Positions 6,701 through 58,248 of a stretch of 64,000 nucleotides of DNA are shown piece after piece. A program made the position numbers and the translations under genes. The DNA is from Candidatus Dojkabacteria bacterium (GTDB lineage: Bacteria > Patescibacteriota > Dojkabacteria > GCA-002793355): positions 635,412 through 699,411 of the forward strand of contig CP129470.1 in NCBI GenBank assembly GCA_030583685.1, written 5' to 3'. Each line of letters opens with the position of its first letter. Positions within the stretch are counted from its first letter, which is position 1. Below the pieces are notes generated by a model, which was not told where the DNA came from, ran no database searches, and saw only the letters and a list, made by a program, of their open reading frames with translations.

Positions 6701-9700
6701 TTACAGTGGAAGCGCAGGAGATTCGGGTGGCAACACTTCGGTAGATTTGGTGGGTAACGTTGGTGGAGCAGGTGGTTGCTGCGCGGGTGTGGGTTGTACT
6801 GGTTTTTGATCAGGTATGCGAGACTGAGCTTGGGTAGGTGCTGGTGTCTGTGGAACCAATGGCTGCCGTTGAGGGGTTGGAGTTGACTGAGGTGCCCCTG
6901 TTTTTGGTTGAGGGGGAGTATCTGGTTGGTTTGGTGCTGCAGGTGGTTGGATCGGTTTTTGAGGTGCCGGTGGTACTGGAGGCTTGGCCATTTGATTCAT
7001 TGGTTGTGGAGCCGGTGATTTTGGCTGCGTTGCTGGAGAGGTATTGTTTTGTTTCGGCCCGCTCACAAAGGAGGCTTGCGCGACAAAGTTAGCAATTGGA
7101 TCGACTTTTGGCGTGTCACTTGGTTTCGTGGGTGTTTGAATATCGGGTTGCGTCTTAGGGACGGAGGGAACCTTATGGTCAAGTGGTTGCTTTGGTGGAA
7201 CCGTAGGTGGCTGTGGTTTTGGTGTTTCAGGAGCAATTGGTGCGGGCACAGAAGGAACAGGTGCTGGTGTTTCTGGCGCTGGTGCAGGTTGAGGGCGCAC
7301 CTCTAGGGTAGGAATATATGCTGTGGTGGTTGGTGAATTTGCTGGTTGTGTGGCAAAAGAAGTAGTTGGCGTGCGAAGTCCTGACGTTGGAGGAGGTGCA
7401 ATCGGAGTAACAGGACGTTTTACTGCAGGAAAATCATTCTTTTCAGAATTCCTGTGCGCGAAGTAAAGGATAATTGGAAGTAGGGCAATTATTGCAAGTA
7501 AGATGAGCCCTGCGAGGAAAATCGTATAATAGCCCTTTTTAATAGTGAAACCGAAAAAATCAACATAGTCGTTATCCTGTGCTGAGGAGTCCACGATAGT
7601 AAAGGTGAGGGATACTTCTTTACTTTTTTCTACTGAATCCTTTGCGGTCACTGCAAGTTGATGAACACCAGGTTCTAACAAGACCGTAGGTTTGTAATTA
7701 GCCGTAAGTGTTTTACCAGAATTTGCGGAGTAGGTGAGCTGACCTGAAATATCTAACCCATCAAGTAACACTGAGACTCCCTCCTTTGTCACTTCTCCTT
7801 GTGAAGACGCGGAAACTGACATGACGAGTTGAAATTCTTCAGCGGTGACCTCAGCTTGATTGAGGGGTGAGGTGATTTGAATACTTAATTCGTCTGGTTG
7901 AGGTTCTTCGGAGGGTATTGTCGGTAAAACCGTTACTGAAGCAGTAGGAGTTGGTGTTGGTGTACTGGTTCCAGATGGTGTTGCTGTTGGAGCAGGAGTG
8001 CTGGTCGGCTTTGGTTTTGGCAATATTCGAACTAGCGCAGTATACCCACTTCCTGTCGCTGGAGGACTAAACCCATCGGTCGCAGTGACAATGAAATAGT
8101 AATCTCCTGGTGGAATAGAAGAAGTGTTAATTGAGAGCCCTCTGGTGTTGTACGAAACATTGTTATTGTAGGTGGTACGCGATGTTGAGTTAAGATTTTT
8201 CGTGTAGTAAATTCCGAAAGAAACAACTTGATGTCTATCGGTAACATCCCAACTTAGCTGAAAATTATTCCCTTGAGTTCTAGTCAATCCAACTGTTGGC
8301 GTAATAATTTGTACTCTAGGAATATCGTTATTTGGATAGTCAACGTTGATTACCCAGGTTCTCGTTATATAATGGCCATAGCCATCGTTAATTGATACGG
8401 AAAAAAGATTACTTCCTGCATGCTGACTCGTTGGTGTTCCCGTGAACTGAATCGAGTACTCAGATTCACCACCGGCACCAACAGAAGAAGTTACTGCAAC
8501 TGCAGCCCATCCTGGCTTTGTAACGATGGTATGTTGCAGTGGATCTCCATCTAAATCCTTTGCACGTAAGGTAAACGAGTAGGATATTCCATAGACGAAG
8601 GAAACTGACGGTGATGACCCCCCACTTGCTGGCGGAGCCATGGGATCAGAAACAAAGGTTGGCGCTCGATTTTCTCCAACATTAACCTGGGCAGATACTG
8701 CTGCGAAAACTCGTTTAATAGTTAATTCGGTAGCGTGTCTGAGAAGACTTGAGAGAGAAATCGCTGGATTGGTAAATTCACACGTAAATACCTTTCCGCT
8801 TTTTGTGGTGATACTTGCTTTGCCGGTGTATGTGCCTTCAGAAAACTTGTAGAGGAGCGCTGGACGGCTGTTCTGATCAAGAATGATATTGGTCGGTTCA
8901 TTTGCAAACTCGTAGTTAAATTCTTTTTCAACAGCGTTGTTTCTTTCGAGGGTCACTTGAGCACTTACCATTGGTTCGGAACTTTCTGCCACAATGACCA
9001 GTGGTGTTGTGACGCGATAATCGAGGAGTTTGACCGTCAGTGCCGGAGTAAACGTGCAAGACACAATTGCGGTGTTAGTTTGCAGCACATAGAGTAAGAA
9101 TGTTTGTGTCGAAACACTTTTTCCGTCATTTGCGAAAAGTGATATTTCGTAAGGTTTCTCTCGATAGACGGGATCTTTCCATGTCAATATGTTGCCCTCA
9201 AGGAGTATTCCTTCTGGAGTGGTAGGATTCTTTGTACAGAATGTTGTTTCAGGGCAAGTCAGCGTATAGGTAATAAGATCTCCGTCGGCATCAGTTGCCT
9301 CAAAAGAATAGGCATATTCTTGTTTTTCGGTGGCATATTTCTCTGGCCGAGTAACAAATTGTGGGGCTTGGTTTCTTACATATTCCCCCAGGTTAAGTGT
9401 TGGAAGAATTGTTTTCTCATTCCACAGCGTCGCGCTTTCTGCATCGGAAGCACCAATTATGGTCACTTGGATAGGACGTTGTTGCTCAGTTAACGTTTCT
9501 AGCAATACACCGTTGACGGTAAAAGAAATGGTTGCTGCAGAAATCATACCCAGTTCGCAAGTTTTATCTTTTGCACAAGTTTCCGGATACAATGCGTCTT
9601 TCGTGAGTGGCGTCGTCATTGTAGCAGGGTAAACAAGAAATCCATTTTGAAACTCACTTACTCGAAGCATTCGTTGGTCTTGCAGTTGTATGCCTTTAAT

Positions 9701-45283: not shown

Positions 45284-47299
45284 ATGTTGATTATGGATGT
45301 TGCAGCTTTTGGAAATATTTCCAAAAAAAAAATAAAAATAAGTCAACGTAGGTACCTTGGGAGTAAGTCTAAGTTACTAGAATTCATTGAAGATATTCTT
45401 AAGAAAGAAAGTGTTGAATACAAGGTTTTTGCGGACATATTTGGTGGCTCTGGCGTCGTCGCTCATCACTTCTACGGGAGGGCAGATATTATTGTAAATG
45501 ACATTCTCAAGTCTAACTACCTTGCATACGTTGCATACTTTGGAAAAGGTCGAGTTCGCCAATTTTATATTGATAAAAAGATTGAAGAGTATAATGCTCT
45601 AGATTCTAAGAATATAACGGAAAATTATTTTTCAATAAATTTTGCTAATACCTATTTTGATCGTGAGAACTCCCTAAAAGCTGGTGCTATTCGAGATGAC
45701 ATTGAATTACAGTATACAAGCGGGTTTATTAATAATAGGGAACGAGCCTATTTAATTACGTCGCTGATATATGCACTTGATAGAATTGCTAACACGGTTG
45801 GTCATTATGACGCCTATAGACAAGTAACTATACCGAAACGCCCCTTGATTCTAAATCATTTAGAACTCAAAGTATGTAAGTCAAAAAGCTGGATTTACAA
45901 CATGGATGCGAACAATCTTGTAAAACTGATCAAACCAGATGTCATATATATTGACCCCCCATATAATTCTAGGCAATATTCGGACTCTTATCATCTACTG
46001 GAAAATATAGCTGAATGGAAGAAAGAGCCAGTATATGGAGTTGCAAGAAAAATTAACCGCTCTCACCTCAAAAGTAAATATTGTCTTAAGATTGCCGGGG
46101 AAACTTTTAGCGATTTGATTGATAAGATCGACGCAAAATACATTCTTGTTTCGTACAACGATATGGGAAAGAATGGAGATAACCGGTCTCAATCTCGAAT
46201 CACTGATCATGAAATCATTTCTGCGCTAGAACGATGTGGTGATGTTAAGATTTATGAAAAATCTTATAAACAATTCACTACAGGTCGATCGTCAAAGAAG
46301 GATCTTAGTGAAAGAATCTTTTTTTGCAGAGTCGGCAAAAGTCCACAAAAAAGGAGGTTACAGGTTTTCGTATCTAAAGGTGATGAGAGGAGAGAATTTA
46401 TAAAGTCTCCACTAAATTATACAGGTGGTAAATATAAATTACTTCCACAGATAACAAAATTTTTTCCAGATGAAATTGAAACATTTTATGATGTGTTTTG
46501 CGGTGGGGCGAATGTCGGGATAAATGTAAATTGTAAAAATGTAGTATGTATTGATAAGGATAGTCATGTAATAGATTTGCATCATTTAATTTCAACTGTT
46601 AACTTTGATGAGTTACATCAAAATATTCTTGCAATTATAGATCGATTTGGTTTGAGTCATAGTTTTGTGAATGGTTACGAGGTGTATGGCACTGAAAGTT
46701 CTAAAGGTCTGGGGCAGTACAATAAAGATAAATATTTATTGCTACGAGCAGAATATAATAAGATGGAGCAGTCTAATGAGAAAACACTTCTACTACTTGT
46801 ATTAATTATATATGCATTTAACAATCAAATACGCTTTAATTCAAAAGGTGACTTCAATTTGCCTGTAGGAAAGCGTGATTATAACGGTAGCTTACGCAGA
46901 AATCTTGCTGCATTTAACCGGGCAGCTATGGAAAAAGTAATTAAATTTCAGGTTGCTGATTTTAAGGATATACTCAAAATGCCCCTTATAGAAAAAGATT
47001 TTGTCTATCTGGATCCTCCATATTTACTTGGACTTGCTTCGTATAATGAAAATGGTAGATGGAATGAAAATCATGAGAAAAAACTATATTGGGTTCTCGA
47101 TAAGCTCAATAAACGTGGAATTCGGTTTGCTTTGTCTAACGTTATAGAACATAAGGGTACCTCAAACAAAATTCTTAAAAAATGGATTGAAAGTCGTGGG
47201 TATAGACTGAATGAGTTAGACTTTCACTACAATAACTCTAACTATCAGTCGAAGGCGAAATTTGACAGTTCGCTTGAGGTGCTCATTACAAATTACTAA
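45284..47299 (+). CDS. type IIS restriction-modification methyltransferase: fusion of two Dam-like (D12 class) N6-adenine DNA methyltransferase domains
   Basis: Two complete MTase modules, each with a DPPY motif (YIDPPYNSRQY; YLDPPYLLGLASY), plus N-terminal SAM-binding regions (FADIFGGSG; DVFCGGANVG). 671 aa. Strongly AT-rich. TACAAT overlaps the first ATG, so the real start is probably the ATG at about 45293. Confidence 0.8.
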   Translation: MLIMDVAAFGNISKKKIKISQRRYLGSKSKLLEFIEDILKKESVEYKVFADIFGGSGVVAHHFYGRADIIVNDILKSNYLAYVAYFGKGRVRQFYIDKKIEEYNALDSKNITENYFSINFANTYFDRENSLKAGAIRDDIELQYTSGFINNRERAYLITSLIYALDRIANTVGHYDAYRQVTIPKRPLILNHLELKVCKSKSWIYNMDANNLVKLIKPDVIYIDPPYNSRQYSDSYHLLENIAEWKKEPVYGVARKINRSHLKSKYCLKIAGETFSDLIDKIDAKYILVSYNDMGKNGDNRSQSRITDHEIISALERCGDVKIYEKSYKQFTTGRSSKKDLSERIFFCRVGKSPQKRRLQVFVSKGDERREFIKSPLNYTGGKYKLLPQITKFFPDEIETFYDVFCGGANVGINVNCKNVVCIDKDSHVIDLHHLISTVNFDELHQNILAIIDRFGLSHSFVNGYEVYGTESSKGLGQYNKDKYLLLRAEYNKMEQSNEKTLLLLVLIIYAFNNQIRFNSKGDFNLPVGKRDYNGSLRRNLAAFNRAAMEKVIKFQVADFKDILKMPLIEKDFVYLDPPYLLGLASYNENGRWNENHEKKLYWVLDKLNKRGIRFALSNVIEHKGTSNKILKKWIESRGYRLNELDFHYNNSNYQSKAKFDSSLEVLITNY

Positions 47300-47304
47300 T
47301 TAGT

Positions 47305-47313
47305 TGATATAAT
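47305..47313 (+). promoter_or_regulatory. extended -10 TGATATAAT immediately upstream of the restriction endonuclease gene (ATG at 47322)
   Basis: Read directly. Gives the REase its own promoter at the 3' end of the MTase gene. Confidence 0.5.
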
Positions 47314-47321
47314 TACAAATA

Positions 47322-49115
47322 ATGGCTGAAGTATGGAGTTTTAACACAACCATCCGAAATCCTGAACGTCTAGAGTCGCTACTCAGAATCCTGTCCGACA
47401 TGGAGGGAGTGATCTTCGATGCACAAGGTCAAGAGCTCTTTTTTAGTTTGCAAATAAAGAAACGGTTTTACAAACCTAGTAGGAGTACTTTGGGAGAAGA
47501 ATTAGCGTCCGCAGTTTTTGATTCCGAGCAAAATGAAGAACTTGATGATAGTGTCGTTAGTAGTATTCTGGACCAATATAGAGGAAACGTCGATAGTGCT
47601 GGTCGTGGGCGAACCTCAGTTGCTGTTCTTAATAGATTTGGATTGAGTATTGCCCTTCAATCTCATGGTCCCGTAATTATTACGCCTTTAGGTAAGAAAT
47701 GGCTTAGCGGCGAAATTGATGATGAGGAACTTTTTACGCGTTTTCTGTTAAGATGGCAGTATCCGAACCCGATTGAAAGTGGGTATACCAATTACGATAT
47801 TAAACCTTTTCCAGCTGTGCTGCAGCTTATTAATGAAGTTAACATAAAATGGAAGGCTGCTGGTAATAATCCCGTAGGTATATCAAAAGATGAATATCGA
47901 CTTTTTGCATTATCATTACATCGGCAAAGTGATATTGTAAGTGCAGCAGAACAAATAATCGAACTCAGAAGGTGTGTCAACACTTTAGTTGGAACCGAGC
48001 GTTCAGATTATATAAATAGATTTACACAACAGCGTGTTATTGGGATTTTTGGTGACACAAATGATGAGCCGATTAGGAAACACATTAGTAATCTAAAAGA
48101 TTACACTGACTCATCTCTACGGTACTTTAGAACATCGGGCTTGATTACACTGCGTGGTGCGGGTCGGTATATAGACATTGCTGTTGATAAAAAAGTAGAG
48201 GTAGATAGTATTCTTAACGACGTTTCCTTAGAGTCAATTGGCTTTACTGAAGCTGCAGATTATCTTGCTTATCTCGGTGATTTATCCTATGAATTACCGT
48301 GGCAAAATGAGGAAGATCTACAGAGGATTAGCGAAAATCTTATGTCCGTTCTTGAATCTGAAGTCCAAGAAACTACGATTGAATTTGATTCTTCAACGAT
48401 CCACAACAAGACTCTTCCACAGAAAGTTAGTATACTCAAAGGCAGAATCAATCAGGTACGTATAGAAAAACTTCGATCACTTAAGCATGACTTAGAAGTA
48501 CTCGATGAAGCAATAGAGAAGTTGTCGAGTATTACTAGCCCAAGGTACGAAATCATAACATCCCGTCCATCTCTCGATTTAGAGTGGTATGTTTCAAGAG
48601 CGCTTATGGTTATCAATGATGCCATTAGAATTGACCCAAGTTTCAAGGTGGGGGATGACGGAGTACCAACTGGTTTTAGGGGTAAAATCTCTGATATTGA
48701 GTGTGAATATACGTCATTTGGATTGACGGTGGAGGTGACACTAATTAAGGGCCGAGACCAATGGTACGCAGAAGGACAGCCTGTTATGAGACACCTAAGA
48801 GATTTTGAAGACACTTTGCCTGAAGGCAAGGAAGCGTACTGTGTGTTTATTGCCCCTCATATTCACCGTGATACGTTAAATCAATTCTGGACTAGTAATA
48901 AATACGAATTTGAAGGAAGGCGGCAGAAAATTATACCTATTTCGATTGGTGAGTTTGTAGACTTCTTGCACAAAGCTCGTGAAATGATTCAATCGAGTAC
49001 TCTGGACCATAGTGCACTAAGAGAACTACTTAACAATATAACTTTATCAGTCGATACTTATTCTGACTCAATCGAGTGGCAAAGCAATATACATAATACT
49101 ATCTTAGGTTGGTAG
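47322..49115 (+). CDS. AlwI/PleI/MlyI/N.BstNBI-family type IIS restriction endonuclease
   Basis: 597 aa, the same size class as N.BstNBI/PleI. Motifs recalled from that family: FLLRWQYPNP (compare KWQYPS), SLRYFRTSGLITLRG (compare TRYFRYTGLFVARG), YCVFIAPHIHRDT (compare YCLFIAPEINKNT). Paired with a tandem-Dam MTase, as for GAGTC/GGATC type IIS systems. Confidence 0.7.
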   Translation: MAEVWSFNTTIRNPERLESLLRILSDMEGVIFDAQGQELFFSLQIKKRFYKPSRSTLGEELASAVFDSEQNEELDDSVVSSILDQYRGNVDSAGRGRTSVAVLNRFGLSIALQSHGPVIITPLGKKWLSGEIDDEELFTRFLLRWQYPNPIESGYTNYDIKPFPAVLQLINEVNIKWKAAGNNPVGISKDEYRLFALSLHRQSDIVSAAEQIIELRRCVNTLVGTERSDYINRFTQQRVIGIFGDTNDEPIRKHISNLKDYTDSSLRYFRTSGLITLRGAGRYIDIAVDKKVEVDSILNDVSLESIGFTEAADYLAYLGDLSYELPWQNEEDLQRISENLMSVLESEVQETTIEFDSSTIHNKTLPQKVSILKGRINQVRIEKLRSLKHDLEVLDEAIEKLSSITSPRYEIITSRPSLDLEWYVSRALMVINDAIRIDPSFKVGDDGVPTGFRGKISDIECEYTSFGLTVEVTLIKGRDQWYAEGQPVMRHLRDFEDTLPEGKEAYCVFIAPHIHRDTLNQFWTSNKYEFEGRRQKIIPISIGEFVDFLHKAREMIQSSTLDHSALRELLNNITLSVDTYSDSIEWQSNIHNTILGW

Positions 49116-49142
49116 CTAATGATTGGGGAATGATAGCATTTA

Positions 49143-49814
49143 TTAAGATTTGAATATTCGATTGAAGTAAAATCGTTTGAACAATTGCAAAATATTATGG
49201 TGTTTTTTCGCAATTTTTGAATGAGATCGTTGCATTCGATTTAGAATAAAGCTTAAAGAAGTTTTTGTTTGTTCTTCTCCAAATTTTGTTGCAAATGTTG
49301 ATACACCTTCCTCTTTATCGAACTTGATATCCATGAGATCATCTAATAGCTGGCGTAGTAGAAAGTAGTCGGCAATATAGTTTAAATCCTTAAATGAAAG
49401 TTGACTATTTGCTTTTTTTATCAAATTTGTTAGTGGTCGATGTCTATTAGTAATTGAAAGCAGTGTATCTCTTTTTACATTGTGAATCTCGAAGTAATCA
49501 CTCATTTTGTACAGCTCCCAGATAGAAATGATTTTCTCTGTTTGTATTGGGCTATCAGTGTAGTTAATAAAGATTAGTGTATCTGTAAAAATAGTATCGT
49601 AAATAGCATTTGGTCTTAAATTTTTGGAAATTGTGTTAAGACACCTGAGGTATGACCGGAGGTTAGGGTCGTTATTCGTTATTTCAAATGTTTTATAATA
49701 TTTAGTCAAAAAAACGCAATGATACAACGAGGGAAACTTTTTAGTCGAAAAAAATAAATACAAGAAAAGCGAGATACTGTTTGTAAGTAAAGTTTTTGTA
49801 ATTATGGATTCCAA
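49143..49814 (-). CDS. hypothetical protein in the AT-rich island. Contains a UbiA-like Asp-rich segment, but the protein is not strongly hydrophobic
   Basis: QLLDDLMDIKFDKEEGVSTFATKFG resembles the UbiA second motif (DDDLKIGIKSTAILFG), but there are no 8-9 TM helices and the protein is only 223 aa. Very AT-rich codon usage. Confidence 0.35.
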   Translation of the reverse strand: MESIITKTLLTNSISLFLYLFFSTKKFPSLYHCVFLTKYYKTFEITNNDPNLRSYLRCLNTISKNLRPNAIYDTIFTDTLIFINYTDSPIQTEKIISIWELYKMSDYFEIHNVKRDTLLSITNRHRPLTNLIKKANSQLSFKDLNYIADYFLLRQLLDDLMDIKFDKEEGVSTFATKFGEEQTKTSLSFILNRMQRSHSKIAKKHHNILQLFKRFYFNRIFKS

Positions 49815-50030
49815 GGCAGTTTGACTTTACTCAATAATGGTACGATAAACTCTACAACTTGATTGAATATTTCCATGAAGCTATGGTGAGCCATTTTTAT
49901 TAGAAAGTCAAGACCACATGTTTGTTGCACGACTTACAGTCTCTTTGAAAGTTCAAGCTATAGATACAGACAATCCATGAAAAAGATTGTATGGCTTCGT
50001 GAGCTGAATTATATGAGAGTATAATAATGA

Positions 50031-50972
50031 ATGGTAAAAAGGAGTAATGATACAAAGTCTCGTATGAACGTTGACTTGTTTAGCGATATAAAAATTGTCG
50101 ACGATGGGTGTTATTTAAAATTGCCTAATTTAAATTCAGACAAATATAGGACATATGATCCTGAGTATATCGTTACAGGTATGATAAAAACTAGAAGAAG
50201 AAAGATTAATGAATTATGGAAAGTTTTCAGAGGAACGCAGGATAACGATTTTTTGAATCAGTACAAATACGATAAAAATTTCTCTTCACGGATGTGGGAA
50301 ATGTATATTGGAGTTATATTGCTTAATAATGGTTGTAAGATTAATGCTAAAAATAACTCTCATTTAGATTTCTTTGTAAATGATTCTTTCTACATAGAAT
50401 GTGTATACCCTCAAAATGCAAACTGTCAAGATAAGCCTGACTATGTTAAGCCGTTGCTTAGGAAAAATAATATCACCGAAAGACCTGAAGAGAGTTTCAA
50501 AACAAGAATTACAAGTTCCATTGCAGATAAGTATAGAAAATACCGGGAAAAGTTAGAGAATGGTAGTGTCAATGAAAATGTGCCCTATGTACTTGCAATA
50601 AATACTGCTTTTAGGGATATGCCCGATGGGATTGTCCATTCTTTATTATTTGGGTATGGCAATACCCAAATCTTATACCAGCGTGATAAATCAGATTTTG
50701 GTACAAAAGTGGTTGCCTATGACAAGGAGAGTATATCTTATATCCTCAAAAGTTTCTGTAAAAAGGTTACAATTGGATACTTTGAGAACAATGAATTTGA
50801 CGGAATAAGTGCAGTCATTTGTTGTAATAATCATATTATTAATTCATCAAAAGAACCTGGCGCAGATTGTTATATAATACGGAATCCATATGCAAAAAAT
50901 GTATTGTGTAACCAAATTAATTTCATTTCAGAAATTTACAGAGAAGATAACTTTGATGGTATATTCTGGTAA
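50031..50972 (+). CDS. hypothetical protein (313 aa) in the AT-rich island
   Basis: Long AT-rich ORF with TATAAT about 5 nt upstream of the ATG (leaderless-type). No motif. Its position next to the R-M system suggests a defence or mobile-element cargo role. Confidence 0.5.
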   Translation: MVKRSNDTKSRMNVDLFSDIKIVDDGCYLKLPNLNSDKYRTYDPEYIVTGMIKTRRRKINELWKVFRGTQDNDFLNQYKYDKNFSSRMWEMYIGVILLNNGCKINAKNNSHLDFFVNDSFYIECVYPQNANCQDKPDYVKPLLRKNNITERPEESFKTRITSSIADKYRKYREKLENGSVNENVPYVLAINTAFRDMPDGIVHSLLFGYGNTQILYQRDKSDFGTKVVAYDKESISYILKSFCKKVTIGYFENNEFDGISAVICCNNHIINSSKEPGADCYIIRNPYAKNVLCNQINFISEIYREDNFDGIFW

Positions 50973-51043: not shown

Positions 51044-53668
51044 TTACCCCTCATTCACCACCTTCTTTAACTGTTCTACCAGCAGGAGGGCTTGGAGGGG
51101 GGTGAGGTTGTTTGGGTCGACGTCTGAGAGTAATTCCTTGACTCGTTTACTTTGCTCGCTTTCAATGGTGCGTGGGGTAGAAAAGAGGTCGAGTTGCGAG
51201 TCGTTTGTTTCCTTGGAGCGTGCGGGTTGTCTAGGAACGGTTAATTCCTTCCCTTCTACGGACAGGGCTCTGGTTTCAAAGGAATTGAGCACCTCAAAGG
51301 CGGTATCGATAATTTCCTTGGGTAAATTGACCAGTTTTGCAACCTGAATACCATAGCTTTTATCACTTCTGCCTCGAGTAATGGTGTGCAAGAAATAAAT
51401 GGTATCGTTTTCCTCTTTCAAGTTGACCTTGTAGTTGATAAATTTCTGGGATAACTCCTCTAAATCGGTTAACTCACGAAAATGTGTGGTGAATATGGTG
51501 GTGCAGCCAATTTTATGGGCAAGATACTGTGCAATGCCCCAGGCAAGCGAAATTCCTTCGTAGGTGCTGGTGCCTCGGCCAACTTCGTCAAGAATGACCA
51601 AAGAATGTGGCGTTGCCTGTGATACGATATAGGCAACCTCCGAAAGTTCAACCATAAAGGTGCTTTTTCCCGTAGAAATATCGTCTGATGCACCAATTCG
51701 CGCAAAGACTTTGTCGACCAAGGGAAGTGTCGCTCGTTCAACGGGAATATACGAACCGATTTGTGCCATAATCTGTAAGAGTGCAATCTGGCGAACGAAT
51801 GTTGATTTTCCTCCCATGTTTGGTCCAGTCAAAATCAAGAAGTTGCTGTCTTGGGTGATTTCCAAATCATTCGCGACAAATTCGGAGACAGTGTTTTCAA
51901 CAACGGGGTGGCGCATGCCGGTTATCTGCATGGTTCTTTCGGTTGTGGTAAGGGTTGGTCGCGTGTAGCGTTTAGTCAACGCTGAAGTCGCAAAACTGGT
52001 TAAAACATCAACAGTTGCGACCATTCTGCCGAGTGCAACCAATTCAGGAATATACTCCTGCAGTTCAGAAATAAGTGCTTTATACAATTCCGCCTCAAGA
52101 AGCTGCATATTGTCCCGTGCTGACAGTACTTGTGCCTCAAGTTGTTTTAGTTCTTCGGTAATATATCGCTCTGTGTTCACCAGCGTCTGTTTTTTTATAA
52201 AATGCGCCGGTGCGTTGGCACTTTGTATACGGGATAATTCGAAGGAATACCCAAAAATATTGTTAAAACTGAGTTTTAAGCCGGGAAGATCGTGGGATAC
52301 TTTCTCTTTTTGGTAAAGGTCTTGAATGTACCGTTCACCATTTGTTGACAGTTCGACCAATTTGTCCAATTCTTGATTGTGTCCCATAGAGACGAAGGTC
52401 GGGCGGTCTCCGTTATCTGATAGTATATTTCGGACTTTTGCGATGAACGCTGATAATTTTATCTTTTGTGTTTTTTCGATTTTTGGGATTGCGGGTAATT
52501 TTTCATGGAGCACAGTAAGTGAAATTCCTTTTTCGACTGCATCCGCCAGTGCGAGTACTTGTCGAAAATGAATTCGTCCGAGACCAAGTGCGCTGGTCAA
52601 TCGCTGGATATCAGGGTAGCGTTGCAACAGGTTTCGAGTCTCTTGATAATGACTGCTGTTTCGTGTATAATGCTCAACTGTATCGTATCTACGGCCCAAT
52701 TCTTCAGGGTCCGTTAACGGAAAGGAAAGCCACTCATACAAGAGGCGGTGACCGGGCGCTGTTTGTGTCTGGTCAAGTATTCCGAGGAGCGATCCTTCAA
52801 GACGATGTGTCTTGAGGTTGTAAAAAAGTTCTAAATTTCTCTGAGTGGTTGGGTCAATCTGGAGTGTATGTCTTAGATTAAAATACTCGAGGGTGGTAAT
52901 GTGTTTTGGTTCAGTTTTTTTTGTTTCTGCAAAATATGTGAGTAAAACGCCGGAGGCTATAGTTGCAAGGGGGTATTCAGAGAGTCCCAGTGGGTCTAGA
53001 TTGGGTACACTAAAGTGAGACAGGAGCGTTTTGGTACTTTTTTCTAAAGAAAATTCTTTATCCTCTAGTGGCTGGATAACCATTCGGTCATGTTTTCGAT
53101 ACTGATATCCATCTTTCATCGACTTTAAGAGCTCTTTGATTCCTAATTGTTCCAAAATATCATCAATCTCTTCGTGATTCTTGGTGACATTTCCTTCATA
53201 CACCTTAAATTCACCGGTTGAAATGTCTGCAAACGCAAGTCCAAACTTTTGTGGAGTGGTCACAATACAGGCAATATAATTCTTGTTTTGCGAGAGTAAT
53301 TCTTCTTGTGTTGCGATGGTCCCTTGGGTAATAACTTCAGTTACCGCACGCTTCACAATACCTTTTGCATTTTTTGGGTTTTCCATTTGACGGGCAACGG
53401 CCACTTTTAGCCCTGCGGCAATGAGCTTTGGTAGATACTCATCAAGCGCTTTTTGTGGGAAGCCCGCCATCGGTGGTGCTTTTTCATCTTTTGACCGACT
53501 GGTCAGCACAATGCCAAGCACTTCGGAAACTTTGACCGCGTCGTCGTAGAAACATTCAAAAAAGTCTCCCATTTGAAAAAGTAAGAGGGCATCTGGATAT
53601 TCCGCCTTGATGGCAGCGTATTGCGCCATCAGTGGCTTAGTTTCGGTCATATGGGAATTGTAACACAT
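51044..53668 (-). CDS. mutS: DNA mismatch repair protein MutS
   Basis: N-terminus MTETKPLMAQYAAIKAEYPDALLLFQMGDFFECFYDDA (mismatch-binding domain). Walker A GPNMGGKSTF. MutS domain V (ILDEVGRGTSTYEG). 874 aa. Confidence 0.95.
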   Translation of the reverse strand: MCYNSHMTETKPLMAQYAAIKAEYPDALLLFQMGDFFECFYDDAVKVSEVLGIVLTSRSKDEKAPPMAGFPQKALDEYLPKLIAAGLKVAVARQMENPKNAKGIVKRAVTEVITQGTIATQEELLSQNKNYIACIVTTPQKFGLAFADISTGEFKVYEGNVTKNHEEIDDILEQLGIKELLKSMKDGYQYRKHDRMVIQPLEDKEFSLEKSTKTLLSHFSVPNLDPLGLSEYPLATIASGVLLTYFAETKKTEPKHITTLEYFNLRHTLQIDPTTQRNLELFYNLKTHRLEGSLLGILDQTQTAPGHRLLYEWLSFPLTDPEELGRRYDTVEHYTRNSSHYQETRNLLQRYPDIQRLTSALGLGRIHFRQVLALADAVEKGISLTVLHEKLPAIPKIEKTQKIKLSAFIAKVRNILSDNGDRPTFVSMGHNQELDKLVELSTNGERYIQDLYQKEKVSHDLPGLKLSFNNIFGYSFELSRIQSANAPAHFIKKQTLVNTERYITEELKQLEAQVLSARDNMQLLEAELYKALISELQEYIPELVALGRMVATVDVLTSFATSALTKRYTRPTLTTTERTMQITGMRHPVVENTVSEFVANDLEITQDSNFLILTGPNMGGKSTFVRQIALLQIMAQIGSYIPVERATLPLVDKVFARIGASDDISTGKSTFMVELSEVAYIVSQATPHSLVILDEVGRGTSTYEGISLAWGIAQYLAHKIGCTTIFTTHFRELTDLEELSQKFINYKVNLKEENDTIYFLHTITRGRSDKSYGIQVAKLVNLPKEIIDTAFEVLNSFETRALSVEGKELTVPRQPARSKETNDSQLDLFSTPRTIESEQSKRVKELLSDVDPNNLTPLQALLLVEQLKKVVNEG

Positions 53669-53781: not shown

Positions 53782-54339
53782 ATGGTAGTCCCTGCATCAA
53801 GAAATGTGCCGACAAGGCGAGCAACGCCACCTCACTCTGAAAGTCATAGGGTAGAGGATCAAACCAATTATGACTATTCTTGTCGCTTAGCGAGCAGTAT
53901 TGCAGTAAATACTGGAATCCCGCCAAAAACTCGTTGGAAAATTCAAGTAGACCGTCATGAAGACGAAGAACATTGGAAGATTGCGAATGCTGCAAGCGGG
54001 CCGGATGTTTCAATAGAATTCAAGCTTGGTGCAGAGGAAACCCTTGTGGCAAATGTAAGAGTGGCGAGGTTAGATTTCGAAAGAACTGCCCTTGACAGTT
54101 TGACTGCTGTGTATGTTTGTACTAAAAAAGGCGATATTGAGCTCAGAAATGCATCGTATAGAGTAGATAATGCATATTATACAATAACAAATAGAACGCA
54201 AGAACCACTGGATTCACCGACCAAGTTTGTCTACAAAGTAATCAAAATTCAAGGAAATAGCCTGTTGAAAGAGGAAAATGTATCAAGCGGTCAAGCTTAT
54301 AGCATTCTTCAGCAAAAAGTTGCATCCTTCTTTCAATAG
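53782..54339 (+). CDS. hypothetical protein
   Basis: 185-aa ORF. The promoter-like element directly upstream supports this start. No motif. Confidence 0.45.
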   Translation: MVVPASRNVPTRRATPPHSESHRVEDQTNYDYSCRLASSIAVNTGIPPKTRWKIQVDRHEDEEHWKIANAASGPDVSIEFKLGAEETLVANVRVARLDFERTALDSLTAVYVCTKKGDIELRNASYRVDNAYYTITNRTQEPLDSPTKFVYKVIKIQGNSLLKEENVSSGQAYSILQQKVASFFQ

Positions 54340-54342
54340 CAT

Positions 54343-56616
54343 TTACCCTAACTGTACACCAACCACTTCCTCACCAATTTTTTCCACATCTTCTGCGGTA
54401 ACCGAGGGGAGTGACTCGACAAATACCAGCACATTTACCCCTTTCTTCACGACTGGTTTCATTTCTTTACGGAGCGGTACGGTAAAATAAGGCTTATCAA
54501 GGGTAATTCCAAGGTAGCTCCATTTTTGCTTCTTCAATGATTCAACGGTTCTTTCAACTAATTGCCATAATTCTGGGTCAATTTCGGTTGCACCAGGTTT
54601 GAAGGCAGTTGCTAAATCCTGCATAGCGAAAAAGACACCGTCAACGGATAAGTCAGAGACCGATTTCGAATTCATAACGCCATACAGCGTTGAAAAGGCA
54701 ACAACCATATGAATTTTTTTGGAACGTCGAATACCAAGTGCCGAAAGTGCCCGTTTTGTAGCGAGCACCTCATCAAAGGAACCGGTGACCGGTAGGAGGA
54801 GAACGAGCGTCCCGTTGAGTTGCTTCTTTAATTTCTTGATACTGAGAATGGTGGACTTTTTCGTATCGAGAACGGGAACGATCAAAAGTTCAGCGTCTGG
54901 AAATTGTTTCGCATCGTCTAAGGAGACGGTAAAGGTGAAGTTGCTGATATCAGTATCACGCAAAAAGAGTTTTATGGGGAAATTCTTTTTTGCTTTTTTG
55001 GTTGTAGTTGTAGTTTCAGGAGTACTCTCTGTTTTTGTAGGCGGAGGCGCTGGCACGGGAGCAGGAGCTGGTGGCATTTCCTTGACAGGAGTAGAAACCG
55101 CAGTTTTTGCAGCAGTCTTCTTCTTTTTCTTTTTGCGTAGAATCCTTTTCACAGGTTGTTCTGGAAGTTCTTCAGGAAGAAAATCAACACGATACACAGC
55201 GCCAGAAGAACCATCTATTTTGAGTAAAGTGCCGGATTGCACGTAAGTTGTGCCAATACGGGTGCCAACAACAGCGGGAATATTTGCAGAACGGGTGAGC
55301 AATCCGACATCACTATTTGCACCGCCGAAATTTGAGACAACACCACCTGCCAAGGCGAAGAGTGGTTCAAGTGTTGCGGTAAATTCATTGACAAAGAGAA
55401 TATGGCGCTTGCTAATGGTGCTTTGCAGGTGCGCAAGCGCCTCGCCAGAAATGCTTTCTGCATTTGGCAGCAAGAGAGCTTCACCATACGCAACACCAGT
55501 TCCTGCAGCAATTCCAGTAAATAGGAGGGTTTCTGGTGGGAGTACGGGAGCAGGTTTCTCAGGTTTCGTATCTTTTGTAATAATGAGTGGAGTAGAATCG
55601 GCAATTTTACTAAATGAGTCTAAATCAGAGGCTGTGGTCACTTTGCGTGAGACCTCCTGAACCTTCTGAAATGTGTTTTCTGATGCGTGAGAAAGCGGTT
55701 TTGCTTGGAGAATATAAAGACTTCCGCGTTCCATGGCCCATTCAATAATTTGCGGTTCTCCGAAGGATTTTTCAACAACGTCAGCAAGTTTGGTGAGTTC
55801 TCTGATCAACATGTCGTCTAATTTTTGGGAGTATTGCCACATCTGGGAGATGGTAATCTTCTGTAAGTGTTCTAGTTCGTTGGCGTCTCCCATTTTGCGA
55901 ACTTTCATCCACTCTTGTGGAACAATCTTTTTTTCGACAATATCCAATGATTCTTTTGAAACAGTATAAATGTCTGGGTTAACACTTCCTTCTGCCAAGA
56001 CGTCACCTAGCCCAAAGACTGCTTCAATTGAAACATGCGACGGATTGTTTGTGATTGGATCGTAGGTATACATAATCCCCGAAACCTCCGCTTGAATCAT
56101 TTTTTGAATAATCACCGCAGTACTGACATCACCGTAAGAAATTTTGTTTCGTTTGAGATAGTCGTAGGTTCTATCGGTAAAAAGCGAGAGGTAAACTTCT
56201 TTCAGTGCAGCTTCGATTTCTTGACTTCCGCGTACGTTTAATTTTGATGCTAACAATCCGCTAAAGGATGTTTGTTCATGACTTGTTGCCACAACAGAAG
56301 ACCGCGCCGCGACCCATGCTTTCCCAAAACCTGAGAGTTTGCCGTATTCAGCTGCAATGAGTGCTTTTGTCTCCTCATCAAGCGTGAGCGAGGAAATACT
56401 TTTTCGAAAATCTTCCAAGGAAGAAACTTGCTTATCTTTGAAAATACGAGCAACAAATTTTGAATACCAATCAGCAGGAATGATGAAAAAAGGAGGAACG
56501 GGGATTTTGTTCTGAACAAGATGGGCAAGGCTCACACCTTTGCGGCCGAGTGTTTTTTCCGTTACGGGTTTTGATTGTGCAGACAAGAAGTCTTTATAAA
56601 ACAAGGGCTGTGTCAT
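54343..56616 (-). CDS. PEP-utilising-enzyme homolog: PPDK_N (ATP-grasp) domain plus a swivel 'mobile' domain whose catalytic His is replaced, a Pro-rich linker and an unknown C-terminal domain
   Basis: N-terminal TLGRKGVSLAHL...IPVPPFFII matches pyruvate phosphate dikinase / PEP synthase PPDK_N. The mobile-domain motif GGANSDVGLLTRSANIPAVVG compares with canonical GG.TSHAAI.ARE.GIPAVVG, i.e. His to Asp. A PAPAPVPAPPP linker precedes a roughly 230-aa C-terminal region. Confidence 0.65.
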   Translation of the reverse strand: MTQPLFYKDFLSAQSKPVTEKTLGRKGVSLAHLVQNKIPVPPFFIIPADWYSKFVARIFKDKQVSSLEDFRKSISSLTLDEETKALIAAEYGKLSGFGKAWVAARSSVVATSHEQTSFSGLLASKLNVRGSQEIEAALKEVYLSLFTDRTYDYLKRNKISYGDVSTAVIIQKMIQAEVSGIMYTYDPITNNPSHVSIEAVFGLGDVLAEGSVNPDIYTVSKESLDIVEKKIVPQEWMKVRKMGDANELEHLQKITISQMWQYSQKLDDMLIRELTKLADVVEKSFGEPQIIEWAMERGSLYILQAKPLSHASENTFQKVQEVSRKVTTASDLDSFSKIADSTPLIITKDTKPEKPAPVLPPETLLFTGIAAGTGVAYGEALLLPNAESISGEALAHLQSTISKRHILFVNEFTATLEPLFALAGGVVSNFGGANSDVGLLTRSANIPAVVGTRIGTTYVQSGTLLKIDGSSGAVYRVDFLPEELPEQPVKRILRKKKKKKTAAKTAVSTPVKEMPPAPAPVPAPPPTKTESTPETTTTTKKAKKNFPIKLFLRDTDISNFTFTVSLDDAKQFPDAELLIVPVLDTKKSTILSIKKLKKQLNGTLVLLLPVTGSFDEVLATKRALSALGIRRSKKIHMVVAFSTLYGVMNSKSVSDLSVDGVFFAMQDLATAFKPGATEIDPELWQLVERTVESLKKQKWSYLGITLDKPYFTVPLRKEMKPVVKKGVNVLVFVESLPSVTAEDVEKIGEEVVGVQLG

Positions 56617-56688: not shown

Positions 56689-58248
56689 ATGAAACACATT
56701 TATAACTTTGATTCTTCATTTTTTAAAGTTGTTCGCGTTATTCCTGGATTGGTTACCTTGTTGTTACTTCTTGCACCAATTTGGGCAACACTTATCGGGA
56801 AGCCAGAAATAGTTCTGTACTATGTTGCTTTTCTTTCAGTGTATTGGTTTTATAAAACAATTGTAACCAATATCGGGAATGTTATTGCATTTCGTCGGTA
56901 CAAACGCGCAATAGCGTTAGATTGGGATGTAATGATTAGTAGGCTCGATTGGAGTACGTTACCCAACCCTGAGCAATTGCCAGCATCATACAACGATTTC
57001 AAACTGGTTGTGCTGATTCCTTTCTATAAAGAACCCTACGAGGTGCTACAGGAGACGGTTGAATCAATAAAAAGCTCGACATATGACTTGCGGAAAGTGC
57101 ATATTGTATTTGGCGTCGAGGAACGTGCGGGCGAACTTGGTGAACAGAATGCAAAACGACTGGTTGAAGAATACTCACCCTATTTTGCTGAAATTAAATA
57201 CTACATTCACCCTGAGGGAATTCCAGGAGAAGCGGTAGGGATTGCAGGTGCAAATCTCTCTTGGGCCTCTCGTGAGTATGTGAAAGATGTGCTTGCCCGA
57301 GGCGATAATTTACAGGAGTATCAAGTCATTAAGTATGACAGTGATATGCTGATTCACCCGAAATTTTTATCGAACTATGTTCATACATATCTAACAACGC
57401 CAGATCGCTATAACGCGTTCTTTTCTCCCGCAATCATGTTGTATTCCAATAATTATTGGGAAGTTCCTGTATTGATGCGTGTCTTCTCTGGTGTTTTGAC
57501 ACTTGCCTTGATGAGTGAGTGGGTTGTCGCCAAAAAAACAAAACAATCATTTTCCTGCTATGGTTTCAATTTGAAACTTCTTCACGAAATTGATTACTTT
57601 GATCCAAAAATTGGAGTTGACGATACAGGGTTTTACTGGCGTGCATTTCTGGCGTTAGATGGAAATTTTCGAGGAGAGGAGTTCTATGCCCCCTGTTACA
57701 ATGATGCAGTTCAGGCAGAATCGTATGTAAAAACACACATTATTCAGTATAAACAACTGAGACGTTGGGGGTGGGGGGCAATTGTTTACCCTATGACCTT
57801 GCAAGGAATCACCAACAACAAGAAGATTAGCATAAAAAAGAAAGTTCTGAGTGTGGCAGAACTCTTTCGTGTGTACAATCTGTATTCGACCATTACCTTT
57901 CTCTTATTCTTCTCCATCCCCTTACTCACCTTGCTCAATCCAGATTTTGGATTTCAAGGTTCAGCCCATGTTCTACCAAAAATCGTGAGTTATATTCTAA
58001 CTTTTGCACTTCTTGGGTTACTACCTTCACGATCAATACTAGAAGGGTTGTACGGAAGACCACCTAAAAAATACGGGGTTCTGTTTTTCCTCTGGCATTA
58101 TTTTGAGCAGTTGATGCTCATATTCTTCTCTTTAACACTTGGTTTTTTCCCGTATTTGCAAGCACAAATGGAGATGATGTTTGGCAAATCGATGACTTTT
58201 ATTGTAACGCCGAAAGTGCGAGGCGAAGGGAAAGTTGGAGGAGCATAG
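56689..58248 (+). CDS. processive family-2 glycosyltransferase (cellulose/chitin/hyaluronan-synthase-like) with integral membrane domains
   Basis: GT2 catalytic motifs, including the D,D,D region (KYDSDMLI) and the processive QxxRW motif (QLRRWGWG). N- and C-terminal TM helices. 519 aa. Confidence 0.7.
   Translation: MKHIYNFDSSFFKVVRVIPGLVTLLLLLAPIWATLIGKPEIVLYYVAFLSVYWFYKTIVTNIGNVIAFRRYKRAIALDWDVMISRLDWSTLPNPEQLPASYNDFKLVVLIPFYKEPYEVLQETVESIKSSTYDLRKVHIVFGVEERAGELGEQNAKRLVEEYSPYFAEIKYYIHPEGIPGEAVGIAGANLSWASREYVKDVLARGDNLQEYQVIKYDSDMLIHPKFLSNYVHTYLTTPDRYNAFFSPAIMLYSNNYWEVPVLMRVFSGVLTLALMSEWVVAKKTKQSFSCYGFNLKLLHEIDYFDPKIGVDDTGFYWRAFLALDGNFRGEEFYAPCYNDAVQAESYVKTHIIQYKQLRRWGWGAIVYPMTLQGITNNKKISIKKKVLSVAELFRVYNLYSTITFLLFFSIPLLTLLNPDFGFQGSAHVLPKIVSYILTFALLGLLPSRSILEGLYGRPPKKYGVLFFLWHYFEQLMLIFFSLTLGFFPYLQAQMEMMFGKSMTFIVTPKVRGEGKVGGA

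Follow-up and report, generated by a model that had tools for sequence, protein, structure and literature searches.

An aspartate in place of the catalytic histidine: a remodelled, clade-wide derivative of PEP synthase in Dojkabacteria

Introduction

What does a protein with the domains of phosphoenolpyruvate (PEP) synthase do once the histidine that carries the phosphoryl group has been replaced? The question is raised by a single gene in the 64-kb stretch of contig CP129470.1 analysed here – referred to below as the window, with positions counted from its first letter. Lying on the minus strand at positions 54343–56616, the gene is a complete open reading frame (ORF) with an ATG start, encoding 757 amino acids followed by a stop codon. 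The superfamily that comprises PPDK, PEP synthase, Enzyme I and rifampin phosphotransferase (RPH) is defined by its phosphohistidine swivel relay, and both the ATP-grasp and the mobile (swivel) domain of the query protein are significantly homologous to those of these enzymes. Where PEP synthase requires the phospho-carrier motif GGxT[S/C]H, however, the swivel domain of the query is present with its histidine replaced by an aspartate, Asp436.

The conclusion reached here, which is well supported, is that the protein belongs to a clade-wide offshoot of PEP synthase and is best described as an ATP-grasp protein that has been remodelled. Its probable mode of action is a more tentative matter, to which we return once the sequence, its relatives and its predicted structure have been described.

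An aspartate at the phospho-carrier position

The motif in question, GGANSD (residues 431–436), is encoded at positions 55309–55326 of the minus strand, with the Asp436 codon at 55309–55311. A phmmer search against all PDB sequences places the query segment ggansdvgllt opposite ggrtshaaivs of the archaeal PEP synthase 8a8e, and likewise aligns Asp436 with the equivalent loop of RPH. Alignment with Escherichia coli PpsA (sequence taken from NC_000913) puts Asp436 on His421 of that enzyme, and an Asn in the query on its Thr419. An earlier note on this DNA, which had read the invariant T-S-H as N-S-D, was thus right about the substitution. It had also allowed for a histidine hidden by a misaligned insertion, and none was found: within the swivel domain the only substitutes on offer are the histidines of LAHLQ and KRHIL, neither of which is conserved among orthologues, and the family-wide alignment (A3) contains no invariant histidine at all.

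The substitution is far from being a peculiarity of one protein. Among the 120 best database homologues, the histidine position is occupied by Asp in 119 and by Glu in one. When one genome for each GTDB species was scanned, 127 related loci were returned, of which 80 – each from a different assembly – were kept; together with three context loci (L001–L003) they make up a set of 83, in which the site is Asp in 81, Glu in two and His in none. The codons found at the Asp site are GAT (68), GAC (16) and GAG (1), and because both GAT and GAC are in use, the aspartate has been maintained through synonymous turnover. Its surroundings are maintained with it: G431, G432, D436 and R442 are invariant among 25 diverse family members, and the pattern GG-x-[T/N]-S-D...R is retained among homologues. 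The His-to-Asp substitution is far beyond chance.

Distribution and phylogeny

The closest named relatives are Candidatus Dojkabacteria (WS6), a lineage of the candidate phyla radiation (CPR) or Patescibacteria, and nearly all of the 80 assemblies are labelled either Dojkabacteria/WS6 or as unclassified Patescibacteria-type bacteria. The distribution of the His-less variant, which the earlier note had left as a point to be checked, is therefore that of a clade trait. A second copy of the 757-residue protein, 100% identical (P0001), comes from an independent public assembly, and the orthologues are intact across all 80 distinct assemblies, at 36–57% identity over the full length.

Two types can be told apart. 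The short type, to which the query belongs, comprises 23 proteins of about 720–757 residues (one of them a 618-residue partial sequence) with the motif GGxNSD, which are 36–100% identical to the query. The long type is a much larger set of proteins of about 830–1000 residues with the motif GGxTSD. Since mutS lies directly downstream in most loci of either type, and since no assembly occurs twice among the 80, the short NSD and the long TSD types are positional orthologues, apparently present once per genome. The gene is the local representative of an orthologue shared by an entire clade of Dojkabacteria, and not an isolated variant.

In a profile search of 1.84 billion representative sequences, the top 28 clusters all carried Asp but for one with Asn and one with Ala. 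The nearest His-bearing protein, P0139, stands at rank 29, and further down the site is occupied in many relatives by Tyr, Ser, Phe, Lys, Glu, Arg, Pro or Gln. In a crude neighbour-joining tree, built from the ATP-grasp and swivel columns and carrying no bootstrap support, the Asp proteins form a single clade, with the NSD type as a subclade inside it and a mixed His-less lineage as its sister; the two together are nested within the His-bearing PEP synthases.

P0139 itself has already lost the barrel Glu and Cys of PEP synthase. Its gene is followed by two tiny ORFs for 59 and 67 amino acids (locus L086, positions 8658–9145), which have weak Enolase_N matches and may represent a fragmented enolase, and by a GPI gene. 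The family motif PQEWM[K/L]VR was considered as a feature tied to the aspartate and rejected, as it is also found in P0139. Reduced DPANN archaea, in which a puzzling and near-universal 'PEP synthase' has been described (bioRxiv 10.64898/2026.05.13.725050), were considered as a second home of the same His-less type. They do not provide one: the recovered Woesearchaeota and Pacearchaeota proteins keep T[S/A]H, and the canonical histidine is retained in the DPANN and other archaeal PEP synthases found by these searches.

A complete architecture with a trimmed barrel

From its N-terminus, the protein begins with the ATP-grasp nucleotide-binding domain PPDK_N (residues 21–321, positions 55654–56556 of the minus strand; Pfam PF01326, E 2.9e-58). 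The swivel, or PEP-utilizers, domain follows at residues 362–478 (positions 55183–55533, minus strand) and aligns with the swivel domains of 8a8e and 5fbs; it is folded in the AlphaFold2 model, and Pfam PF00391 matches residues 403–472 (E 5.6e-10). Next comes a Lys/Pro/Thr-rich low-complexity linker (residues 486–542, positions 54991–55161, minus strand), evident from the translation, which includes PPAPAPVPAPPP, varies in length among orthologues and is predicted to be disordered (pLDDT below 50). The remainder (residues 548–757, positions 54346–54975, minus strand) forms a compact eight-stranded TIM barrel, homologous to the PEP-binding domain of PEP synthase but devoid of its catalytic residues.

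Up to the linker, this is the domain order given in the earlier note, whose 'unknown' C-terminal domain can now be assigned. A profile of 21 orthologous C-terminal domains against PDB sequences had produced chance matches only (ubiquitin D, E 0.029), and a Pfam match of residues 596–707 to HpcH_HpaI (PF03328) is sub-threshold. AlphaFold2, run on the C-terminal domain alignment, yielded a model of high confidence (pLDDT 92.5, pTM 0.88), made up of eight beta-alpha units; the fold was thus recognised only after structure prediction, the sequence profile having given nothing significant. As modelled, this domain of about 215 residues is the TIM barrel of the PEP/pyruvate superfamily, which in PEP synthase has about 300.

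The full-length AlphaFold2 model agrees with this assignment, its best Foldseek match being the Neisseria PEP synthase 2OLS (E 2.6e-27), followed by RPH and PPDK. On account of these matches, the protein can be described as having the complete PEP synthase architecture with a trimmed barrel. The inter-domain confidence of this model is low (pTM 0.42), so that it says nothing about how the domains dock. The query is, in sum, a PEP synthase homologue with all three domains – ATP-grasp, swivel and TIM barrel.

Residues kept and residues lost

Which parts of the PEP synthase machinery survive in this architecture was assessed by comparing 155 Asp-type with 131 His-type single-swivel proteins, in the residue numbering of E. 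coli PpsA. In the ATP-grasp domain, K27, R127, T146, E320 and Q334 are kept, at 93–99% in the His type and at more than 96% in the Asp type. Residues K26, R105, S124 and E292 of the query align with K22, R117, T136 and E297 of RPH, which have ATP-positioning roles tested by mutagenesis (PMC4844700); Q304 is also conserved. Other positions of the same site have changed. E133, which is Glu in 122 of the 131 His-type proteins, is Pro in 129 of the 155 Asp-type ones, and R336 (Arg in 124/131) has become Lys in 139/155. D134 and D318 (Asp in 120/131 and 121/131, respectively) are variable in the Asp type, D318 being most often Asn but still Asp in 27 of the 155. The changes at E133 and R336 are new conserved states and not random drift.

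The barrel has fared differently. R511, R578, E680, N703, D704 and C751, each the canonical residue in 88–95% of His-type proteins, have largely gone from the Asp type: R511 is replaced by Asp (103 proteins) or deleted, R578 by Ser, Thr or Ala, N703 by Pro (95) and D704 by Arg or Lys (81), while C751 falls in a gap in 113. E680 is the only barrel position at which the acid tends to stay, and in the query it is Ala. The short NSD type additionally lacks the N-terminal segment of the barrel that bears the two Arg motifs.

The best-conserved segment of the whole protein is the loop around Asp436 (residues 424–451), with a mean pairwise identity of 72% among NSD orthologues and 60% across the whole family; the values are 63% and 48% for the ATP-grasp domain, 61% and 41% for the swivel domain, 35% and 30% for the TIM barrel and about 15% and 14% for the linkers. 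The gene is under purifying selection, and its changes have been fixed across the clade. To judge from the sequences, simple decay is made less likely by how strongly the Asp loop is conserved and by the way in which the ATP site has been remodelled in concert, with its new states conserved in turn.

Measured against PEP synthase, then, the protein has the N-terminal PPDK_N domain and the C-terminal TIM-barrel fold, and it lacks the phospho-carrier histidine, the barrel residues for PEP, pyruvate and Mg2+ and an adequate score against either of the two PEP synthase equivalog models, reaching 224.9 bits against a cut-off of 598 for NF005057 and 205.9 bits against 739.75 for TIGR01418. Because the histidine is absent, because R511, R578, N703-D704 and C751 are lost and because the equivalog scores are only about one third of the cut-offs, it is highly improbable that the query is a PEP synthase, and interconversion of pyruvate and PEP is not expected of it. 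The earlier note's view that this is probably not a pyruvate/PEP phosphotransferase, which had been based on the swivel motif, is strengthened by the losses in the barrel.

What an aspartate might do on the swivel

ATP-grasp enzymes generally form acyl-phosphates, and the reading that we tentatively favour – as the most plausible one, held with some reserve – is that the family has turned to this kind of carboxylate chemistry at its nucleotide site, with Asp436 being phosphorylated by the ATP-grasp domain to an acyl-phosphate that is then hydrolysed or passed on. As the residues that bind the ATP phosphates are kept, as the remaining changes in the ATP site are conserved in their turn and as constraint on the protein is strongest in the Asp loop, we infer that the ATP-grasp domain and the swivel form a working unit that needs the carboxylate. 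The ATP-grasp domain would still bind Mg-ATP, given its retained phosphate-positioning residues, and the swivel loop, as the best-conserved segment, would still be in use, offering the nucleotide site a carboxylate instead of an imidazole. Classical ATP-grasp carboxylate phosphorylation, taking place in cis on Asp436, could then generate a labile aspartyl-phosphate or aspartyl-pyrophosphate, and this intermediate might be hydrolysed or handed to an acceptor other than pyruvate. The protein would act as an ATP-driven switch or kinase, with the trimmed barrel of the short type probably serving mainly as a structural or oligomerisation module.

A more specific claim is that the invariant aspartate is a true phospho-carrier, phosphorylated in cis and passing its phosphoryl group to a new, non-pyruvate acceptor, which would make these the first natural aspartyl-phosphate proteins of the PEP-utilising family. 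We regard this narrower version as doubtful.

Several observations weigh against the favoured mechanism, and most of them speak for a non-catalytic pseudo-enzyme instead. In the sister lineage the histidine has been lost in other ways (to Tyr, Ser, Phe, Lys or Glu), often with a degenerate loop, which implies that members of the group are able to survive with no obvious phospho-carrier. Even within the Asp clade, two members (P0132 and P0136) have Asn or Ala at the site. The barrel has lost its catalytic residues, and no catalytic-face residues are shared by the barrels of the short NSD and the long TSD types, so that no conserved second active site is visible there. Lastly, disordered low-complexity segments are predicted by AlphaFold2 where PPDK has structured linkers that guide the swivel.

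On the pseudo-enzyme account, the relay would be dead, Asp436 would be a permanent mimic of phosphohistidine, or a structural residue that fixes the swivel in one docked state, and the protein would be a regulator or scaffold that senses nucleotides and oligomerises through its barrel; VadK, a PPDK relative turned regulator, provides a precedent. Three points tell in the other direction. The Asp loop is the most conserved part of the protein, with the flanking GG, T/N-S and R all kept; the phosphate-binding residues of the ATP site are retained, while those that changed are fixed in new states; and the barrel has lost the very arginines to which a phosphomimetic group would bind. We consider a pseudo-enzyme rather unlikely, though still a serious contender.

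The changes in the ATP site can also be read as compensation. Acidic residues near the phosphates are lost (E133 to Pro, with D134 variable and D318 becoming Asn or varying) while the swivel gains a carboxylate, as would be expected of an exchange of charge or ligand, and no part of the protein is better conserved than the loop and the ATP-grasp domain. Both facts would fit a single composite site: with the swivel loop docked in the ATP-grasp domain, Asp436 would bind Mg2+ or serve as general base while a phosphoryl or adenylyl group passes directly from ATP to a bound substrate, no covalent enzyme intermediate being formed. An enzyme with two sites and a ping-pong mechanism would thereby have become an ordinary kinase or ligase. 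Strict compensation is not seen, however, given the 27 proteins that keep Asp at D318, and we hold this hypothetical model to be improbable.

That the protein is still a pyruvate, water dikinase of glycolysis or gluconeogenesis, working through an Asp-phosphate and substrate residues that have escaped recognition, is more improbable still. The full three-domain architecture is in its favour, as is the adjacency of the nearest His-bearing relative to the putative enolase fragments and GPI. JGI and some NCBI records give family members the name 'pyruvate, water dikinase' or 'phosphoenolpyruvate synthase', and PEP synthase has been proposed as a substitute for the PEP-to-pyruvate step in CPR bacteria without pyruvate kinase (PMC7304191). 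Against all this stand the equivalog scores already given and the simultaneous absence of the catalytic histidine, both phosphate-binding arginines, the Asn-Asp pair and the proton-donor cysteine, the Arg-bearing part of the barrel having been deleted outright. The group-transfer potential of an acyl-phosphate is, moreover, lower than that of PEP, so that synthesis of PEP from such an intermediate would be unfavourable.

That the gene is a pseudogene in decay, or an artefact of sequencing or assembly, as the loss of catalytic residues in two domains might suggest, is effectively refuted by the conservation data: the ORF is intact and has an identical copy in another data set, its orthologues are undamaged and alignable over their full length throughout the clade, conservation is strong and domain-specific, and the aspartate has withstood synonymous codon turnover.

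Gene neighbourhood

The downstream neighbour on the same strand is mutS (positions 51044–53668, minus strand; Pfam MutS_I–V in L001–L003), and tblastn places it immediately after the PEP synthase-like gene in the majority of the 83 related loci, in short and long types alike. A functional link to mutS was considered and rejected, as the upstream neighbour is about equally conserved in the TSD clade (61 of 73 loci) and relatives outside the clade lack mutS; the adjacency is best read as inherited synteny, usable as a marker of orthology only.

The 674-bp gap between the two genes is occupied by an ORF for 185 amino acids (positions 53782–54339, plus strand), which has no Pfam hit and no tblastn match in the 83 related loci. 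The corresponding gap holds four other genes in L001 and measures only 49–77 nucleotides in L002 and L003. It seems to be prone to insertion, or the 185-residue ORF may be spurious.

On the other side, and divergently oriented, lies a gene for a 519-residue membrane protein (positions 56689–58248, plus strand), possibly a GT2-like glycosyltransferase. By eye it reads as a divergent processive GT2 enzyme, with VLIPFYKEP, DSD and QLRRW motifs; its Pfam GT2 matches are sub-threshold only (E 0.027 and 0.058), and it has no match among PDB sequences. By tblastn, homologues at 43–82% identity are present in L001–L011, which are NSD-type genomes only, and in none of L012–L084. The NSD-type neighbourhood, which runs DUF2085, DUF2298, MgtC/DUF4010, TatD, Trans_reg_C, the 519-residue protein, the divergent PEP synthase-like gene and mutS, is conserved down to 36% protein identity. 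In the long TSD-type orthologues, the upstream gene encodes a different, equally conserved membrane protein. The link to exopolysaccharide production that the earlier note had suggested for this pairing is weak and is not supported by these results: the GT2 scores stay below threshold, and the pairing is confined to the NSD subclade.

Further observations in the window and the wider family

Just beyond mutS, positions 45284–50972 encode a 671-residue D12-class N6-adenine methyltransferase and a 597-residue AlwI-family restriction endonuclease, flanked by ORFs for 223 and 313 amino acids that have no Pfam hit. This is the lowest-GC stretch of the window (0.356–0.359) and a probable mobile restriction-modification island. 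ARAGORN found no tRNA or tmRNA genes in the window. Almost all of the 2-kb bins have a positive GC skew, which suggests that the window lies on a single replichore.

Elsewhere in the PEP synthase family, the searches turned up giant proteins of 1100–2650 residues (P0152, P0157 and many of P0169–P0257), with one ATP-grasp-like region and two to six tandem swivel domains, each of which keeps the catalytic histidine. In P0169, P0193, P0219, P0239, P0259 and P0308, about 415 residues interrupt the catalytic T-C|H motif. A hit to Pfam PF14890, which we take to be an intein domain, is present in P0308 and P0329, and we interpret the interruptions as inteins that have entered PEP synthase at its active-site loop.

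Implications

We found no description of an Asp-type or His-less PEP synthase clade of CPR bacteria in the open-access literature searched. A large natural clade in which the aspartate is fixed, its loop is the most conserved segment and its ATP site has been re-tuned in concert would point either to a new phospho-carrier chemistry or to a clear conversion of an enzyme into a regulator. A protein of 740–860 residues that is present in every sampled Dojkabacteria genome, at a genome size of about 1 Mb, probably has an important role.

There are consequences for annotation as well. The name 'pyruvate, water dikinase' is probably a systematic mis-annotation for this clade, and the inference that PEP synthase stands in for pyruvate kinase is probably wrong for Dojkabacteria, which changes the reconstruction of their minimal carbon and energy metabolism.

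Comparison with known systems

The closest known system is PEP synthase itself (PpsA, EC 2.7.9.2; the enzymes of E. coli, Neisseria (2OLS) and archaea (8A8E, 9DAE)), which has the same domain order and folds, is the best match in both sequence and structure and shares with the query most of the residues that bind the ATP phosphates. The query differs from it in having Asp for His421 and Asn for Thr419, in the absence of the barrel residues and the trimming of the barrel, in the changes at E133, D318 and R336 and in its disordered linkers.

The sister 'DSY' lineage (P0147 and P0264–P0278; loci L085 and L087), a neighbouring clade, is likewise labelled Dojkabacteria, belongs to the same family and is His-less with a conserved ATP-grasp domain. 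Its motif is [R/K]-D-S-Y, with Tyr in place of the histidine and Asp in place of the motif threonine. The loop has degenerated at its GG and RE, whereas PF02896 can still be detected in these proteins. Unlike the query gene, its genes lie after GluRS, a transglutaminase-core protein and a Na/H exchanger, and no mutS is found beside them.

For the proposed chemistry, a precedent comes from HPr of the E. coli phosphotransferase system, in which an engineered His-to-Asp variant (His15Asp) accepts and donates phosphate (Napper 1999 JBC 274:21776, as cited in PMC6763467). This is a laboratory mutant of an unrelated fold with an unstable, cyclising acyl-phosphate, whereas the query is a natural and conserved variant.

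Other members of the superfamily show the ATP-grasp and swivel domains repurposed for an acceptor other than pyruvate, namely RPH and the prodigiosin ligases PigC and RedH, whose ATP-grasp domains are highly similar to that of the query. RPH keeps its catalytic His825 (PMC4844700), unlike the query with its Asp, and is built in the order ATP-grasp, rifampin-binding domain and C-terminal His swivel, whereas the swivel of the query is central and a TIM barrel follows it. PigC and RedH, which appear to have kept the phospho-carrier histidine as well, also differ in domain order, with a dedicated substrate-binding domain where the query has the barrel. The query belongs to none of these families by score, with 161 bits against a cut-off of 999 for the RPH model NF041857, and 216.6 against 1300 and 199.7 against 1350 for the PigC/RedH models NF052631 and NF052632.

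VadK (Rv1127c) of Mycobacterium tuberculosis, a truncated PPDK that acts as an autophosphorylating regulatory kinase, resembles the query in being a protein of the PPDK/PEP synthase family that stands outside central carbon metabolism and has no working PEP/pyruvate site (bioRxiv 10.1101/2025.10.30.685616). It has, however, no C-terminal domain and autophosphorylates on H422 – an activity abolished by H422A – whereas the query keeps its barrel and has an aspartate at that place. Taken together, RPH, PigC and VadK imply that the module of ATP-grasp and swivel domains can be repurposed.

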